Assembly: GCA_964572175.1 (NCBI GenBank)
Contig: CAZNEH010000004.1
Location: 1 to 60,411, forward strand
Source of the DNA: an uncultured Gammaproteobacteria bacterium
GTDB taxonomy: Bacteria; Patescibacteriota; Patescibacteriia; UBA9570; CAZNEH01
Length of the DNA: 60,411 nt
Direction: 5' to 3'
Below are positions 10,458-36,128 of the stretch, in pieces; within the stretch, counting starts at the first letter, position 1; each line of letters starts with the position of its first letter. Below the pieces are notes generated by a model that was not told the DNA's origin, searched no databases, and saw only the letters and a list, made by a program, of their open reading frames with translations. The position numbers and the translations under genes were made by a program.

Positions 10458-10602
10458 GGGGTTTTTCCTCCCCCGGTTGAAGTTCACTTAAACCTTATAA
10501 TTATTAACCTTTCTAGTCAAGGTGATTACCCTTGACATTTTAGATATTTTATGACAAAGTAGGCTCACCCCCCCCCCACTGCCCTCAGAAAGGAGGCACC
10601 TG

Positions 10603-16665: not shown

Positions 16666-17172
16666 TCATTTTAAAGCATTTAAAACTGTTAATCCAAATT
16701 CAGAGGCAGCACTTGGACCATTACCAGTAATTAGTAAACCATCTTTAGTTACTGCCGCTCCAGTATACTGAGCTTTGTGTTTTTTTAAGTGTGCTTCCGC
16801 TCCATCCCAAGAAGTGGCTTCTTTGTCTTCTAATAATCCCGCGTTAGCTAAAATTTTAGGAGCTACGCAAATCGCACCAGTAATTTTACCTGCCTCATAA
16901 AAATCTTTAGCTAGTTTCACAAATTTTTCGTTATCCACCAAATCTACCATTCCTTGGCCACCTACAAATATCACCCCATCAAAATCTTCCACTTTAACAT
17001 CATCAACTACTAAATCTATTTTAGCTTCACCACCTAAAAACCCTTGGGCCATTCCTGGCCCCAAAGAAGCAGTTTTTACCTCTACGCCGCCCTCTGTAAG
17101 CACCATTTTAGGGGTGTTATACTCTATGTCTTGATAGTCTTTTGGGGCTATCACCATTAGTATCATTTTCAT
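16666..17172 (-). CDS. DJ-1/PfpI family protein
   Basis: E18-type Glu, GGQG, AICVAP nucleophile, ITGNGP. Confidence 0.9.
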   Translation of the reverse strand: MKMILMVIAPKDYQDIEYNTPKMVLTEGGVEVKTASLGPGMAQGFLGGEAKIDLVVDDVKVEDFDGVIFVGGQGMVDLVDNEKFVKLAKDFYEAGKITGAICVAPKILANAGLLEDKEATSWDGAEAHLKKHKAQYTGAAVTKDGLLITGNGPSAASEFGLTVLNALK

Positions 17173-17211
17173 GTATATATTATAGCATATTATGCTTTTC
17201 CACAGCTACCC

Positions 17212-17239
17212 TTGACAAATATTAAAAAACTGGTAAGAT
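17212..17239 (+). promoter_or_regulatory. Sigma70-type promoter for the sRNA candidate
   Basis: TTGACA-16-TAAGAT with extended -10 TG. Confidence 0.6.
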
Positions 17240-17245
17240 TGGCTA

Positions 17246-17505
17246 AACTCAGAAAGGAGTTTTGGTGGCCGTCCTTTTAAATATTATAAAGATATAGAAA
17301 GTCTCTGGCGAGAACACATTACTATGACTTCCCCTCCTTGGTCATAAATGTCTGTTCCTTGCCAGCGGCTTTCTGCACCTTTAAATTTACCTGCCGTAGT
17401 AGGCAGGAAAAGCACCCACCATCTCATTTGTATGGAACAAGGATAACGACTCCTCCTTAGTTATTCTTTCCTTCATGCAAATGGGGTAGTGGGTGTTTTA
17501 TTTTT
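17246..17505 (+). ncRNA. Candidate structured sRNA with two CCUCCUU (anti-SD) apical loops
   Basis: Long hairpins 17296-17374 and 17409-17499 with many G-U pairs on the + strand, short hairpin 17390-17407, 3' U-tract, upstream promoter, no credible ORF. Confidence 0.6.
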
Positions 17506-18007
17506 CCCGAATTAATTCGTCTTTAATAGTTTCTACTGCTTCCCCGAGCATTTTTTTTACTTTAGCCCTCTCTAAGAGAGAGAACCTATTTAAAACAAAT
17601 TTAGAAGTATCTTTAATATTTTTCTTAGCAATCCCTAACTTAACTCGATTAAACTCCTCAGTTCCTAAATGCTGAATAATAGACTTAATTCCGTTATGTC
17701 CGCCGCTACCGCCCTGTGGTTTTACTTTGATCTTACCTAGCTCCATATCTTTATCATCATGAACCACCCAAACATCGCTTGGGTCTATTTTATAATATTG
17801 GCAGATTTTAGACACTGCTCGGCCACTTTCGTTCATAAAAGTAGTTGGCTTAGCAAACATAGCGCTGCCCTCTCTAGTAATTTCAGCTTCTAGCTTTTTT
17901 TCCAAAGAAAACTCACTAGTCATCTCATCTAAGACCATAAAGCCTAGATTATGCCTGGTTTTTTTGTATTCTTCACCTGGATTTCCCAGGCCTATAATTA
18001 ATTTCAT
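17498..18007 (-). CDS. pth: Peptidyl-tRNA hydrolase
   Basis: GLGNPG..Y..TRHNLG, FMNESG, VVHDD, GGHNG. Confidence 0.95.
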   Translation of the reverse strand: MKLIIGLGNPGEEYKKTRHNLGFMVLDEMTSEFSLEKKLEAEITREGSAMFAKPTTFMNESGRAVSKICQYYKIDPSDVWVVHDDKDMELGKIKVKPQGGSGGHNGIKSIIQHLGTEEFNRVKLGIAKKNIKDTSKFVLNRFSLLERAKVKKMLGEAVETIKDELIREK

Positions 18008-24742: not shown

Positions 24743-25450
24743 TCAAGATGAAACGCAAAGAGAAACTGGAGAAAAGCACACGAACATTACAACCTAGTAA
24801 GAGAGAGCCCAGACACTGATCCTGGGTAAACAAAAGATCAGTAGAACACGCATGTCTCTCTCGTTAACCCTTCGATACGATTTTCCTAAGGAAAATCACT
24901 CAGGGTGAAACAGTTATAGAGATATGCGTGTTCTTTTATAAAAAGGAGTTGATTAATAGAGAAGTAAACCAGAAGTAAAAGTAGAGAGATTACTTCCCTA
25001 GAAATTAAATCCTAGATTACTCTGGAATACCCAAGCCTCCTTATATAAGGCGGAACGGTAAACAACGAGTTAATCAAACGATGATTAGCAAATGAGGTTG
25101 AGAACAGTAAAACGTTTTCCCTCGCAACTACCAAAAGGTGGTTTGAGCAATCAATAGTGCACAGCTAAGTCAACTTCGGTTGACCTGGCTGGCGAGGTTC
25201 TAGGAGCGCTTGCCTAGGACTTCACCAGCCGGTTCCAGTAAATAAACGAAAGGCTACTATTCTAAATACTTCTTAAAGAGCAGGTCCAAGGTGTTGGACT
25301 AAAAGAAGGAACAGAGTAGAGGACATTGACAACTTAGTTCTCCCTAAGCTCATAACTAGATTATGTGTTTAGGGAGCATCACGAGAGACTACGGCTAAAC
25401 GCGCGTTCATCTGGGTTGTCCAGGTGCGTTCGTAAAGCAGAGTCTTTCGT
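24743..25450 (+). ncRNA. Candidate ~700-nt highly structured noncoding RNA or 5' leader
   Basis: Successive hairpins, e.g. 24843-24934, cUUCGg-capped 25162-25191, 25187-25230, 25339-25376, 25381-25450; G-U pairs favour + strand; no ORF >=60 aa in the track before 25365. Confidence 0.6.
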
Positions 25451-25470
25451 TATGTATCATGGAGTCATTT

Positions 25471-25818
25471 ATGACCAAGCTCATCAACCTGACCCCCCAC
25501 GCCCTCACCCTCCGTGCCGTCGATGGCACGGACACCACCATCGCCCCCTCGGGGACGGTGGCCCGGGTCTCCATGACCCCGGGAGTCAAGACCGAGGTCG
25601 AGGGGGTCCCGGTCCCGGTGTGGACCGCGGACGAGGTGGGGGAGGTCACCGGCCTCCCCGCCCCGCAGGAAGGCACCTTCTACATCGTCTCCGGCTTCGT
25701 CGGGTCGGCCTGCAAGGGCCGCTCCGACATCCTCGTCCCGGGCACCGGCCCCAAGGACGGGGCCGTCCGCAACGACCGCGGCCACATCCAGGCCGTGACC
25801 CGCCTCAAGCGGGTCTAG
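25471..25818 (+). CDS. GC-rich cassette A: NLTPH-motif protein, putative Crn4-like ring nuclease
   Basis: MTKLINLTPH...ARV...GLPAPQEGTFYIVS...R.D...P...R...G pattern, which I recall for the Crn4 family; GGAG SD. Confidence 0.6.
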   Translation: MTKLINLTPHALTLRAVDGTDTTIAPSGTVARVSMTPGVKTEVEGVPVPVWTADEVGEVTGLPAPQEGTFYIVSGFVGSACKGRSDILVPGTGPKDGAVRNDRGHIQAVTRLKRV

Positions 25819-25831
25819 ACGGTCACCCCTC

Positions 25832-26140
25832 CCCAGTCATGAGGCAACTGGGAATTCGGAGGACACCTCGCCTCACCCCTGGGAGCACGCGCACCGCACA
25901 CCGCGTGTCGCTCCCATCCTTTTTTCCGCTCAGTATTTCTGCGAAAAATAAACATAGCGCAGCCAAATAGTGAGCGTAAATAAGGATTCTCACATCCTGA
26001 CCAGTAAAGGCCCTATCCACCCTTTGTGGATGCGCGTTCTTCCCAGAGCGCAGAGTGGAGCCACACTGACTGGTAAAAAATCTTGACCCCCCACGGGTCC
26101 CGGGTTCATGAGCCTTTACTCTCGAAAGGAGCAAATCATG
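25832..26140 (+). repeat. Divergent copy of the inter-cassette structured module
   Basis: Pseudoknot 25832-25875, GGGAGC..GCTCCC hairpin 25881-25915, hairpin 25916-25987, multibranch motif 26000-26074, SD GAAAGGAG. Confidence 0.8.
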
Positions 26141-26503
26141 TCCAAGTCCAACAGCGTCCCCACCGCCGCCGAGGAGGCCAAAAGCCTCTTCGAAGAGACG
26201 CTCCCCACCCTCCCCACCACCATCAAGAACGGGGTCGAGCGCCCCGTCTTCCAGTTCGAGGAGTTGAAGGAGGACGGGTCCGTTTGGGTCCACTCCGGAG
26301 CGGATGGCGTCCCCCCCCGAAAGATCGGTTCCATCGGGGAGCCGATCGAGGAGATCATCCCCGACAAGATGATCTCCTCCCTGATCTTGGAGGATGGCGG
26401 GGCCGGGGGGCTCCCCTCCGAACCACAAAAGTACCGGACCTCCGTGGCCCGGCAGCTCCGCCGGGAGCTGGCCGAGAAACTCCTCGCCATGTGCGAGGAG
26501 TAG
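26138..26503 (+). CDS. GC-rich cassette B: acidic hypothetical protein
   Basis: GAAAGGAGCAAATC-ATG start; C-ending codons; MSKS N-terminus. Confidence 0.7.
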   Translation: MSKSNSVPTAAEEAKSLFEETLPTLPTTIKNGVERPVFQFEELKEDGSVWVHSGADGVPPRKIGSIGEPIEEIIPDKMISSLILEDGGAGGLPSEPQKYRTSVARQLRRELAEKLLAMCEE

Positions 26504-26504
26504 T

Positions 26505-26796
26505 GCCTAGTCCAGGCCTAAGACACGTCTGGTGAAAAAAACAACTGTCTTCAGACGGGAGCCCGCGCATCGCACACCGCGCCGGTTCCCATCCTTTTTT
26601 ATTTTCATCATCCAGCATGGTGAACATAAATAAGGATTCTCACATCCTAAACCAGTAAAGGCCCTATCTCACACCTCGCGAGATGAGCGTTTCCTAGAAA
26701 CGCAGAGTGGAGCTACACTGACTGGTTAAAAATTAGACCCCCTCGTGGGTCCCGGGTCATGATCCCGGTTACTCTTTGAAAGGAGATATCATGTCC
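26505..26796 (+). repeat. ~290-bp inter-cassette direct repeat, copy 1
   Basis: Near-identical to 27027-27317, with differences only in the first ~40 nt. Confidence 0.95.
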
Positions 26797-27024
26797 CAAT
26801 CCATCGCCACGTCCCCCCGCCCCCAGTCCACCCCCGTCCGGTGCGCGCAGTGCGTGCATTGGGTTGAGAAGATGGGGGGCTTCGGCCTCTCCGTCTCCGC
26901 CAAGGAGAAGGGATTGAAGTTTTGCCTCGGCCAAAGGGCCGAGGCCTTCACTATGGGGATGGAGGACGCCTGCGTCCTCACCCCGCCAGACCACTTCTGC
27001 GCCCTGGCAAAAAAGAAGGAGTAA
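26791..27024 (+). CDS. GC-rich cassette C: small Cys-rich protein (77 aa)
   Basis: GAAAGGAGATATC-ATG; CAQCVHW...C...C...C. Confidence 0.65.
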   Translation: MSQSIATSPRPQSTPVRCAQCVHWVEKMGGFGLSVSAKEKGLKFCLGQRAEAFTMGMEDACVLTPPDHFCALAKKKE

Positions 27025-27026
27025 GC

Positions 27027-27317
27027 GCCTAGTCCAGACCTAAGACACGTCTGGCGAAACAAAAACTGTCTTCAGACGGGAGCCCGCGCATCGCACACCG
27101 CGCCGGTTCCCATCCTTTTTTATTTTCATCATCCAGCATGGTGAACATAAATAAGGATTCTCACATCCTAAACCAGTAAAGGCCCTATCTCACACCTCGC
27201 GAGATGAGCGTTTCCTAGAAACGCAGAGTGGAGCTACACTGACTGGTTAAAAATTAGACCCCCTCGTGGGTCCCGGGTCATGATCCCGGTTACTCTTTGA
27301 AAGGAGATATCATGTCC
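27027..27317 (+). repeat. ~290-bp inter-cassette direct repeat, copy 2
   Basis: Near-identical to 26505-26796. Confidence 0.95.
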
Positions 27318-27686
27318 AAGTCCATCAACACCGCCGCCCTCGCCTCCCTTCTCGCCCCCTGGTTCGCCAGCGGCGAGGACGAGGATATCCCGACCGGATG
27401 GGAGGTCGAGGGGGCTTACGAAGAGCCCCATCGCGTCCCCCGTGTCCACGGGGAGGTGGACGGAAACCGGATCTACTGCGTAGATCCGGAGGACCACTGC
27501 CCCTTCTGGCTGGTCTGGGGGGGACCGGGAGAAATCCCGGAAAACCTGTTCCACAACGACACCGCCCTCGAGGAGCGCCACGAAAAGCTCCTCGAAATCG
27601 GCAATGCCCTCGGGGGATGGCGAGAGTGCGAGGGGTGTGGAGAGTGTGTCTCAGTGGGGGAGGTATGCCCCCATTGCGGACAATAG
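27312..27686 (+). CDS. GC-rich cassette D: acidic protein with C-terminal zinc ribbon
   Basis: GAAAGGAGATATC-ATG; CEGC...CPHC at the C-terminus. Confidence 0.7.
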   Translation: MSKSINTAALASLLAPWFASGEDEDIPTGWEVEGAYEEPHRVPRVHGEVDGNRIYCVDPEDHCPFWLVWGGPGEIPENLFHNDTALEERHEKLLEIGNALGGWRECEGCGECVSVGEVCPHCGQ

Positions 27687-27697
27687 GCGCACCCAGC

Positions 27698-27830
27698 CCA
27701 GACCTGAGCATGTCTGGACACAAACAAACAACTGTTCACCTGGAAGCGTGCGCCTTGCACCGGCCGCGCTTCCATCCTTTTTTCTTTCCATTACTCTTTC
27801 TCTCTCTAGAGTAGTGGAGGGAAAAAAGAG
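27698..27830 (+). terminator. 3' module of the last cassette: pseudoknot + GC hairpin + U-tract hairpin
   Basis: ccagac/gtctgg stem, loop tgagca pairs tgttca; tggaagcg...cgcttcca then T-run; ccattactct/agagtagtgg. Confidence 0.7.
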
Positions 27831-27888
27831 GAGAACTAAGTTGATTTAAGGCAAAAAATATGCTATACTTAATAAGTAAAATAAAAAA

Positions 27889-30633: not shown

Positions 30634-31593
30634 CGTAAATTAGTCAAGACCTTTGCACCACTTCCAGTGGTGTTTGGTAGTTTATTCCCATGTGTAATCT
30701 TTCAGTATTGTAATAATGCAAATACTCATTTATCTTCCTGTTTAACCAGGGAGTATTATTCTTGTATTTAATAATTTCATCTCTCATCTCTTCTTGAATA
30801 GTTCTATTAAATCTTTCAACATGAGCATTGTCGTTAGGTTTTCTCACTCTAGAATGTCTATGCTTTATTCCAATGGGCTCAACCATAGAGGTGAAATATT
30901 TTGAGAACTCAGGGCCATTATCAGATTGAATACATCTAAAGTTAAAAGGAGTGTTTTTCCTAGCTTCTTTAAACGCTTGTAAAGAAGAATAAGTATTCAC
31001 TCTATTCATGGCTTTAGCCTGGGCCCACCTGGAATGACAATCTATTAAAGTAAAGATATAAACATTGTTTTTATTACTTTTTGGTATGTGAATAGTATCT
31101 AGTTGTCCTAAGTCCCCAGGTTTAGCTATTTTAGGACGCTTTATGTTTTGATGATACTTTTTCCAAGGAGAACGCTTTTTAATTAAACCATATTTGTCTA
31201 AGGTTCTTTTAACTGTAGAAAGACTTACTTTAATTCCTTCTCTTTTAAGTTGAGCGTGAACTATTTGAGCACATCTATTTCTTTTTAATCTTACTTCTAA
31301 TATTCTTTTTATTATTTTCTCATCTGTAGCTCGAGGGGATGTTTTGGGCCTAGAAGATAAAGTTGGAATTTCATAAATTGTGCAAGTAGATGGAGACTTC
31401 TGCAACCAACGTACCACACTAGAATGAGATACTCCAAAGTGTCTAGCTACTTTTCTAGTGCTCCAACCTTTATTTTTAACTAACATAACTGCTTTTGCCC
31501 TGACCTTGGGCAAATAGGGATTTGTTGTATATGGCATATGATTTATCATACCTTAAAATAGGTTAGGTGGTGCAAAGGTATTGAACCATTACG
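30634..31593 (-). mobile_element. IS481-family insertion sequence, 960 bp, 6-bp TSD GCACCC
   Basis: Imperfect terminal IRs (cgtaa..tcaagacctttgcaccac / gtggtgcaaaggtattga..ttacg); GCACCC at 30628-30633 and 31594-31599. Confidence 0.85.
30644..31537 (-). CDS. IS481-family DDE transposase
   Basis: HTH N-terminus; QLDT, QSDNGPEF, NAHVERFNRT, YNTERLH; likely start MPYTTNP. Confidence 0.9.
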   Translation of the reverse strand: MPYTTNPYLPKVRAKAVMLVKNKGWSTRKVARHFGVSHSSVVRWLQKSPSTCTIYEIPTLSSRPKTSPRATDEKIIKRILEVRLKRNRCAQIVHAQLKREGIKVSLSTVKRTLDKYGLIKKRSPWKKYHQNIKRPKIAKPGDLGQLDTIHIPKSNKNNVYIFTLIDCHSRWAQAKAMNRVNTYSSLQAFKEARKNTPFNFRCIQSDNGPEFSKYFTSMVEPIGIKHRHSRVRKPNDNAHVERFNRTIQEEMRDEIIKYKNNTPWLNRKINEYLHYYNTERLHMGINYQTPLEVVQRS

Positions 31594-35297: not shown

Positions 35298-35638
35298 TGG
35301 ATTGCCTGTTTTGTAAAATAATAAACAAAGAAATTCCTTCAGATATTGTTTTTGAGGACGACCAGTTAATAGTTATTAAAGACATCGAACCTAAAGCACC
35401 TCTGCACCTCTTATTAATTCCTAAAAAACACATCTCTTCTCTTAATGACATTACAGAAGAGGACAAAAATATAATTTCTGCCATAGCTTTTAAAGCCAAA
35501 GAACTGGCTAAAGAATTTGGAGTGGCCGAGTCTGGCTACAAGCTTGTAAATAATTGCGGACCAGATGGCGGGCAAACAGTTTTCCATCTTCACTTCCATC
35601 TTTTGGGTGGGGAAAAATTAAATAGATTTCCCGTTTGA
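35297..35638 (+). CDS. HIT family nucleotide-binding protein
   Basis: CLFC, GQTVFHLHFHLLGG. Confidence 0.92.
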   Translation: MDCLFCKIINKEIPSDIVFEDDQLIVIKDIEPKAPLHLLLIPKKHISSLNDITEEDKNIISAIAFKAKELAKEFGVAESGYKLVNNCGPDGGQTVFHLHFHLLGGEKLNRFPV

Positions 35639-35679
35639 CATTAAAACTGGGAAGTGTTATAGTAATAGCATCATTGAAA

Positions 35680-35785
35680 ACTCTTCGATACAATTTTTCC
35701 TTCGGAAAAATCACTCAGAGTATTTACGATGATTGTTAAACCTTGAGTGATCCTGAGTAGCCCGCAAGGGCATATCGAAGGATCG
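35680..35785. repeat. Pair of REP-like elements (CTTCGATA...ACTCAG family) in the rpsU leader
   Basis: cttcgatacaatttttccttcggaaaaatcactcag and inverted ctgagtagcccgcaagggcatatcgaag; related copy at 24870-24903. Confidence 0.6.
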
Positions 35786-35840
35786 TACCGAAAGGTTAAC
35801 CTAAATAATTAATCTTTTACCTAGAAAGGAAGGTGACTTA

Positions 35841-36128
35841 ATGGTAATTGAAGCAAAGAAAAAAGACAACGAATCTAACGAAAGTTTAATCCGTCGCTTT
35901 ACTAATAAGCTTAGAGGCAGCGGTGTTTTAATTCAGGCTAAAAAAACTCAGTTTTACGAAAAGCCAAAGAATAAATCTCTTGTTAGAAAAGACGCTATTA
36001 GACGAAAAAAGACTAAGGATCACTACGATTATCTTAGAAAAATCGGAAAAATAGACGAAAATGAAGGCCGCTATGGCCGTCGACGTCGTGGACAGAAAGG
36101 ACCAAAAATTCCTAAACCAAAATTATAA
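35841..36128 (+). CDS. rpsU: 30S ribosomal protein bS21 (CPR-type)
   Basis: 'E..E.LIRRF...G......K..FYEKP' pattern; precedes yqeY as in the rpsU-yqeY operon. Confidence 0.75.
   Translation: MVIEAKKKDNESNESLIRRFTNKLRGSGVLIQAKKTQFYEKPKNKSLVRKDAIRRKKTKDHYDYLRKIGKIDENEGRYGRRRRGQKGPKIPKPKL

Follow-up and report, generated by a model that had tools for sequence, protein, structure and literature searches.

The window analysed here is a stretch of 60,411 nucleotides from a bacterium of the Patescibacteriota lineage (contig CAZNEH010000004.1 of assembly GCA_964572175.1), and the element in question is a putative gene for a small RNA (sRNA) with two hairpins, whose loops carry the anti-Shine-Dalgarno (anti-SD) word CCUCCUU. 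It lies in a non-coding gap of 325 bases, flanked by the minus-strand gene of a DJ-1/PfpI protein (16666-17172) and by the minus-strand gene pth (17498-18007). The genome to which the window belongs, here designated G000, comprises 1.08 Mb in 51 contigs, is 98% complete and has a GC content of 37.8%. The features recognised at the locus are the following:

17208-17239, + strand: promoter, with ACCC, a -35 box TTGACA at 17212-17217, a 16-nt spacer and a TG-extended -10 box TAAGAT at 17234-17239
17246-17286, + strand: 5' leader, in which the small hairpin AAACUC/GAGUUU surrounds AAGGAG (17254-17259); it also contains a GTG frame of 10 codons that is not conserved
about 17287-17385, + strand: hairpin 1, of the 45-bp class; apical loop uuccccuccuug at 17329-17340, carrying CCCCUCCUU at 17331-17339
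17390-17408, + strand: linker hairpin CCUGCC-GUAGUA-GGCAGG, present in this genome only
about 17409-17500, + strand: hairpin 2; loop gacuccuccuua at 17448-17459, followed by UUUUAUUUUU
17402-17505, + strand: core of the RNA family, made of an A-run, a long closing stem, the apical hairpin with the loop at 17448-17459, and a U-run; CUCCUCCUU at 17450-17458
17498-18007, - strand: pth, peptidyl-tRNA hydrolase (Pfam PF01195, E = 1.5e-58), the convergent neighbour

An earlier note on this DNA had described a promoter followed by two long, G-U-rich hairpins with loops at 17329-17340 and 17448-17459, and all of these elements were found at those coordinates. The promoter fits the consensus at 10 of 12 positions and has the extending TG; to judge from the -10 box, the RNA would start near 17246. 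Folding of the + strand gave -107.2 kcal/mol (z = -8.14), and none of 200 shuffled sequences folded as well, whereas the - strand gave -82.2 kcal/mol (z = -2.85). The term G-U-rich is a fair one, since 11 of the 89 pairs in the minimum free energy structure are G-U or U-G. In both apical loops CCUCCUU is predicted to be unpaired, with a mean probability of 0.998 in hairpin 1 and of 0.984 in hairpin 2. Simply as a word, CCTCCTT is not enriched in the window (11 matches as compared to 9.8 expected); what stands above chance is where it lies, in each of the two apical loops, and the fact that the homologues described below have kept it.

At the 3' end of the RNA a simple terminator scan made no call, because the loop exceeds the length limit of the scan; the long stem followed by the U-run suggests that a terminator is nonetheless present. 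The stop codon of pth (17498-17500) falls within this U-run. The locus has the traits generally expected of an sRNA gene, namely a promoter of its own, a stem with a U-run, a structure conserved on one strand and a position outside any open reading frame (ORF). Judged from its sequence, the segment 17208-17505 of the + strand is a putative independent sRNA gene of about 260 nt, presumably transcribed, headed by a sigma-70-type promoter of its own and closed by a hairpin with a U-run.

The sole frames at the RNA are the 10-codon frame of the leader and unconserved ORFs of 40-47 amino acids. A coding role for the leader frame (MAVLLNIIKI*) was dismissed, since the homologues in two related genomes, G010 and G004, have neither a start codon nor a frame at that place. 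The leader itself differs by lineage: G010 has none, and that of G004 (locus L036, 1720-1775, minus strand) carries three GGAG(G) motifs, UAGGAGG, UAGGAG and CGGAGG, upstream of its two anti-SD hairpins. The count of SD-like words in the leader is three in G004, one (AAGGAG) in the window copy and zero in G010. The AAGGAG of the window copy is largely paired, with a mean probability of 0.11 of being unpaired, and words of this kind could pair internally with the anti-SD loops and mask them. The linker hairpin is deleted in the homologues of G010 and G004, as seen in the model alignment.

Distribution and covariation of the RNA family

A BLAST-type DNA search of 40 relatives returned nothing beyond the window itself, and homologues surfaced only with covariance models. 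Three models were used: R1, built from the single sequence of the window; R2, a model of the second hairpin; and R3, built from 16 sequences. R1 matched the RNA over its whole length in G010 (56 bits) and G004 (47.8 bits), both from the same order, whereas in G030 and G003 only the second hairpin was matched; in these homologues the loops are retained and the stems altered. The window copy scores 88.1 bits with R2 and 73.6 bits with R3, and no paralogue of it was found in G000.

With R2, exactly one + strand copy was detected in 16 of the 32 genomes of the order. By family, the RNA is present in 1 of 1 genome of f1, 3 of 5 of f5 (a count that leaves out one further weak match), 12 of 13 of f4, 0 of 12 of f3 and 0 of 1 of f2; weak matches in G038 and G013, which are short and terminator-like, were not counted. 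When five f3 and f2 genomes were inspected, coding DNA was found directly after pth and the RNA was not there. Beyond the order, R3 and R2 together identified six members (G129, G114, G051, G143, G090 and G061) among 147 sampled genomes of the class, coming from other orders and families, and this figure is a floor because the speed filters were on. None of 150 other genomes in a phylum-level sample, six of them from the same class, gave a match. Through a metagenome scan with Pth, 32 loci with an identity not exceeding 53% were obtained, and none of them contained the RNA (R1, E <= 10). The pattern TGTATG...ACTCCTCCTWA, which proved insufficiently strict, was also run against the genome collection: among the matches listed, 4 of the 80 loci fetched were family members, and all four correspond to members previously found in the order.

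The structure is maintained by compensatory change. In the 16 sequences of the order, 91.4% of pair cells are standard, as compared to 33-47% when the partners are slid by 1-3 columns, and both sides have changed in 35 of the 42 pairs, in an alignment that was fitted to the model and so favours the structure. None of 500 column shuffles attained any of the observed covariation measures. RNAalifold alone predicted 41 pairs, of which 36 are compensatory, and added a small side hairpin B, which most relatives have and the window copy lacks; according to the same program, most members have a long closing stem with a three-way junction, and the core spans about 130 nt. In the 16 sequences there are 84 G-U or U-G cells and 22 A-C or C-A cells, and this excess of the former indicates that the RNA strand is the one opposite to pth. 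The proposal of a stand-alone + strand sRNA with anti-SD loops, made in the earlier note, thus agrees with the fold of the two strands, with the covariation and with these cell counts.

The most constant part of the molecule is the apical loop. Its consensus is N-A-C/U-UCCUCCU-A/U-A, with UCCUCCU in 16 of 16 members of the order and CCUCCU in 6 of 6 distant members, the latter word being invariant in all 22. Four members have two hairpins (G000, G010, G004 and G016); in these, CCCTCCTT is invariant in hairpin 1, which has compensatory changes in 10 of its 26 pairs. A CTTGACA-type -35 box stands immediately before the RNA in all 16 members of the order, and a U-run follows downstream in 15 of them; the copy of G028 ends ...GTTCGACCCCT.

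The comparison with Rfam that the earlier note had recommended, in order to exclude 6S RNA and the RNA of the signal recognition particle (SRP), gave neither of these and no other family. With Rfam 15, no family was found at the gathering score in the whole window; at E <= 10 the region 17000-17700 gave only microRNA-type noise, and at E <= 5 there was no consistent match at the RNA in 15 homologous loci. A tRNA/tmRNA scan of the window found none. The RNA family is absent from Rfam 15 and, among the genomes sampled, is restricted to one class of Patescibacteria.

Genomic neighbourhood and Shine-Dalgarno background

In 9 of the 16 loci of the order and in 4 of the 6 distant loci, pth is convergent with the RNA gene and abuts its 3' end. 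In G030 some 670 nt separate pth from the RNA gene; at that locus (L047, contig C1 of G030, 912-1431) the space between them holds a MazE-type antitoxin ORF (PF04014) together with another small ORF. Beyond the RNA promoter, and divergent from it, mfd (recognised by its CarD_TRCF and UvrB-interaction domains) is found in 10 of 15 relatives within the order; mfd also abuts the RNA in 3 of 6 distant members, and der lies upstream of pth. The arrangement der-pth, RNA on the other strand, mfd is the ancestral one; in the window, DJ-1 occupies the place of mfd. The RNA is kept without an adjacent pth in G003, G009, G022 and G012.

The 3' end of 16S rRNA was canonical, GAUCACCUCCUUUCU, in all three relatives examined (the 16S gene of G000 is cut by a contig end), and it is for this reason that the loops can be said to share CCUCCU(U) with a real anti-SD. 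The statement of the earlier note that resident genes barely use SD sequences and that GC-rich ORFs do was borne out by the counts, which rest on crude ORF calls and on the presence of an SD-type tetramer at -20..-4 as compared to a control window: 77 of 825 AT-type ORFs of G000 had an SD (control 99 of 825), and 64 of 110 GC-rich ORFs did (control 17 of 110). The SD-bearing GC-rich ORFs belong to what we call cassettes. Windows or islands with a GC fraction of 0.5 or more number 129 in G000 and total 121.9 kb, that is 11.3% of the genome.

Two words are shared by the RNA gene and the cassettes, as had been noted earlier for positions 10528, 31596 and 10584-10595, and both are real. The 10-mer ACCCTTGACA occurs three times in the window (10528, 17208 and 31596) as compared to 0.06 expected, and at seven sites in G000, one of which is the sRNA and six of which precede GC-rich sequence. 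The 12-mer CTCAGAAAGGAG occurs twice in the window, in a cassette leader at 10584 and in the sRNA leader at 17248, with 0 expected. The tie to the cassettes that the earlier note drew from these words did not hold up: the RNA is found in several orders and in a conserved der-pth/mfd slot, and in G010 and G004, too, the RNA is preceded by the CCCTTGACA promoter, so that this type of promoter is the RNA gene's own and does not mark a cassette. Nor did the suggested co-occurrence with cassettes in related genomes appear. The pattern of an SD, an ATG and ten codons with G or C in third position (GC3), which is a crude proxy for a cassette, had 0 matches on both strands in five genomes with the RNA (G010, G003, G030, G024 and G020), and many in genomes of f2 and f3 that lack it, namely, against control, 14/12 in G001, 19/11 in G002, 30/18 in G014, 7/1 in G008 and 5/0 in G025.

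Two GC-rich regions of the window may be described here. A GC-rich block at 25300-27850 (0.56-0.59 GC) contains many overlapping ORFs, and the seven frames that were tried had no Pfam match; at 25461, 26128 and 27303 there are SD+ATG starts followed by GC3-rich codons, and two of them begin ATGTCCAAGTCC. An rve-type integrase/transposase gene (30644-31546, - strand) stands back to back with the promoter of a GC-rich cassette gene of the MYG1 family (PF03690; 31596-32685, + strand).

The window also encodes the ribosomal protein bS21. The rpsU gene (PF01165, 32.1 bits; 35636-36128) has its own TTGACA promoter and a long leader, and an SD-like AAGGAAGGTGA is found 4 nt before its ATG, though the resident genes lack SD sequences. 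This echoes rpsU of SD-less Bacteroidetes: ribosomes of Flavobacterium sequester the anti-SD with bS21, bS18 and bS6, and an SD is kept on rpsU (PMC7797042). As a special target of the RNA, rpsU was rejected, since by eye its SD-like AAGGAAGGUGA pairs just partly with either loop. The rpsU leader, of about 190 nt, includes one copy of a repeated motif of 40-80 nt (CTTCGATAC.ATTTT.CCT..GGAAAA.TCACTCAG.G), and another copy precedes the GC-rich block at 25.3 kb. The copies (35678-35757 and 24866-24906 in the window; C8:5805-5873, C8:19088-19130, C13:5456-5530 and C17:17830-17863 elsewhere in G000) are 76-89% identical and have no Rfam match at the gathering score; the motif is possibly a shared structured leader.

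Possible modes of action

As to function, we favour a trans-acting sRNA with anti-SD seeds, pairing with sites of the GGAGG type in the manner of alpha-r14/NfeR1, RsaE or 6C, and we regard this as having roughly an even chance of being right. Pairing in trans is favoured because an exposed, invariant anti-SD word carried on covarying stems, and duplicated in some lineages, is, among documented RNAs, the design of alpha-r14/NfeR1. In the family core the long closing stem supports the apical hairpin, whose 12-nt loop displays the invariant CCUCCU, identical to the core of the 16S anti-SD; G000 and three relatives have a second anti-SD hairpin. The exposed loops would act as seeds and pair with GGAGG-type SD sequences in the minority of mRNAs that bear one, which in G000 would be mainly those of the GC-rich cassette genes together with a few resident genes. 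Occlusion of the ribosome-binding site would then lower translation. The anatomy and strand of the gene, the conserved structure, the invariant loop, the distribution, the synteny and the SD statistics are what the analysis has shown; transcription, pairing at SD sites and repression are what we infer.

Several observations weigh against this mode of action. In G000, no complement of at least 12 nt to either loop exists except the antisense of the gene itself, and in five genomes of genus g10 the 14-nt complement of the loop, with up to 2 mismatches allowed, had no more matches than a control; the complementarity that was found is of the short SD type only, 6-10 nt. The order is SD-poor with or without the RNA, the SD fraction being about that of the control in four genomes that have it and in four that lack it, and natural targets should therefore be few. 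Across genomes, the presence of the RNA neither correlates with the use of SD sequences nor follows SD-led GC-rich genes. The RNA is evidently dispensable, since families f3 and f2 have lost it. Moreover, the junction is strongly conserved (UGUAUGGG...CCUAUACA, UCAAGU), and an invariant loop together with a conserved junction fits a protein-binding site equally well.

The latter point leads to a protein decoy, in which the loop (U/C)CCUCCU(U/A)A would mimic the 3' tail of 16S rRNA and titrate or store a factor that binds this tail. Candidate partners would be bS21/bS18-type proteins, a nuclease of 3'-end maturation, or Era, whose KH domain would recognise that tail. A decoy would account for a loop that is invariant though the stems covary and for junction motifs conserved beyond the needs of pairing, and it would suit the setting, in that bS21 is encoded in the window with the SD-like AAGGAAGGUGA before its ATG, and the products of the adjacent genes, der and pth, have ribosomes as their site of action. 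Besides, the order is SD-poor and keeps a canonical anti-SD, as is the case where Flavobacterium ribosomes sequester theirs (PMC7797042). However, the loop has only 6-7 nt in common with the 16S tail, the flanks being ACUCCUCCU or CCCCUCCU as compared to UCACCUCCU, and known RNAs of like loop design act through base pairing; overall we consider the decoy unlikely. A cis-acting element of the pth locus, that is a bidirectional terminator or antisense at the 3' end of pth controlling the stability of the pth (or der-pth) mRNA or read-through into mfd, appears improbable as well. The convergent abutment to pth described above (with G030 as a tenth locus of the order, at about 670 nt), the frequent mfd on the other side and the pth stop codon inside the U-run speak for it, and so does the A-run before the closing stem, by which the reverse strand also has a stem with a U-run in several members. 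On the other hand, a terminator needs no branched structure of 130 nt, no consensus promoter of its own and no invariant loop; complementarity to the 3' untranslated region of pth is given automatically and would not hold the loop constant in sequence; the G-U and A-C counts support the strand opposite to pth; and the two elements occur apart, since the RNA persists without an adjacent pth in four genomes and f3 and f2 genomes have pth without the RNA.

The reading proposed in the earlier note, a regulator that serves specifically the GC-rich SD-bearing cassettes and is co-regulated with them by way of the common ACCCTTGACA promoter, or else an SD-blocking weapon against host translation, is in our opinion very improbable. 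All seven ACCCTTGACA sites of G000 are either the RNA or precede GC-rich sequence, CTCAGAAAGGAG is common to the RNA leader and a cassette leader, and SD sequences are concentrated in cassette ORFs. Against this, the cassette pattern, crude as it is, is absent from five genomes with the RNA and present in genomes without it, the cassettes of any single genome are far younger than the RNA family and the pth/mfd slot that it occupies, and CCCTTGACA heads the RNA in G010 and G004 too; for the weapon, no export signal and no sign of delivery to a host were seen. Silencing of cassette mRNAs in G000 is possible only within a general SD-directed action. Least probable of all, and to be regarded as extremely unlikely, is a very divergent housekeeping RNA, SRP or 6S, missed by the Rfam models. 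The RNA is single-copy, conserved and rod-like, with a strong promoter, and no small or large SRP RNA (RF00169, RF01854) and no 6S RNA (RF00013) was matched in G000, 6S being absent also at E <= 10 on the region; small SRP RNA went undetected in 10 relatives (G001-G005, G008, G009, G011, G012 and G030), and large SRP RNA in four of these that were tested. Yet G000, which is 98% complete, lacks the Ffh M domain (PF02978) and has just one match to the SRP54-type GTPase (PF00448), of 18.8 bits and below the cut-off, and the RNA cannot be an SRP RNA because there is no SRP protein in G000 to bind it and no model match. Nor was a GNRA tetraloop, or any loop of SRP RNA domain IV, seen on reading the sequence. 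The shape of 6S is likewise missing, since a closing stem and a junction, with no large central bubble and a core of about 130 nt, stand in place of a rod of about 180 nt, and absence from f3 and f2 would be odd for an essential RNA. It may be added, as a separate observation, that the SRP pathway is perhaps missing or very divergent in this lineage.

The RNA family keeps its structure across 22 genomes, its loop is invariant and looks functional, and a covariance model of it is ready for use; a search of literature terms found no described sRNA of Patescibacteria or the candidate phyla radiation. These organisms keep the ribosomal anti-SD yet hardly use SD sequences, and an RNA that displays the anti-SD could help to explain the residual use of the SD/anti-SD pair, as well as the handling of SD-bearing imported genes. 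More speculatively, and we rate this as unlikely, a conserved and abundant RNA carrying the anti-SD tail might be a selective filter that absorbs or silences SD-led messages and spares the SD-less resident mRNAs, or alternatively a decoy that determines the free amount of an anti-SD-binding factor of the bS21 kind. The targets of such a filter would be the mRNAs of imported GC-rich cassettes, phages or plasmids and, if true, this would amount to translational xenogeneic silencing. If the RNA does nothing but ordinary SD occlusion, a distant phylum would have arrived convergently at the alpha-r14/RsaE/6C design, a finding useful for annotation and unsurprising.

Comparison with known small RNAs

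The closest counterpart is alpha-r14/NfeR1 of Sinorhizobium meliloti, to which AbcR1/2 are related. In alpha-r14/NfeR1, CCUCCUCCC anti-SD motifs in hairpin loops serve as redundant seeds that occlude the ribosome-binding site and silence mRNAs; the anti-SD motif is ultraconserved and unpaired on variable stems, and the action is independent of Hfq (PMC10746234). The RNA of Patescibacteria is similar in being a stand-alone hairpin sRNA with an exposed anti-SD seed (probability of being unpaired 0.98-1.0) and stems in which 35 of 42 pairs covary. It differs in several respects: alpha-r14, from alpha-proteobacteria, has three hairpins, each with CCUCCUCCC, whereas the present RNA has one or two; the motif here is (A)CUCCUCCU(U/A) or CCCCUCCU(U) instead of CCUCCUCCC; its hosts barely use SD sequences; and its gene occupies a fixed pth/mfd slot. 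Homology to alpha-r14 was not found with Rfam 15, among whose 4227 models alpha-r14 is assumed to be.

In RsaE/RoxS of Bacillota and in RNAIII-type sRNAs, C-rich unpaired loops pair with G-rich SD regions. Their seeds are CCCC or UCCC runs, whereas the RNA described here has the full CCUCCU, another architecture and another taxon, and has no Rfam match to them. The 6C RNA of Actinobacteria has two hairpins with C-rich loops that are thought to pair with G-rich mRNA sites. Unlike 6C, to which no Rfam match was obtained at E <= 10, the RNA of Patescibacteria carries an anti-SD word in place of C-runs and, in most members, a long closing stem with a three-way junction. In short, the RNA family is new, its design is familiar and the translational setting in which it occurs is unusual.
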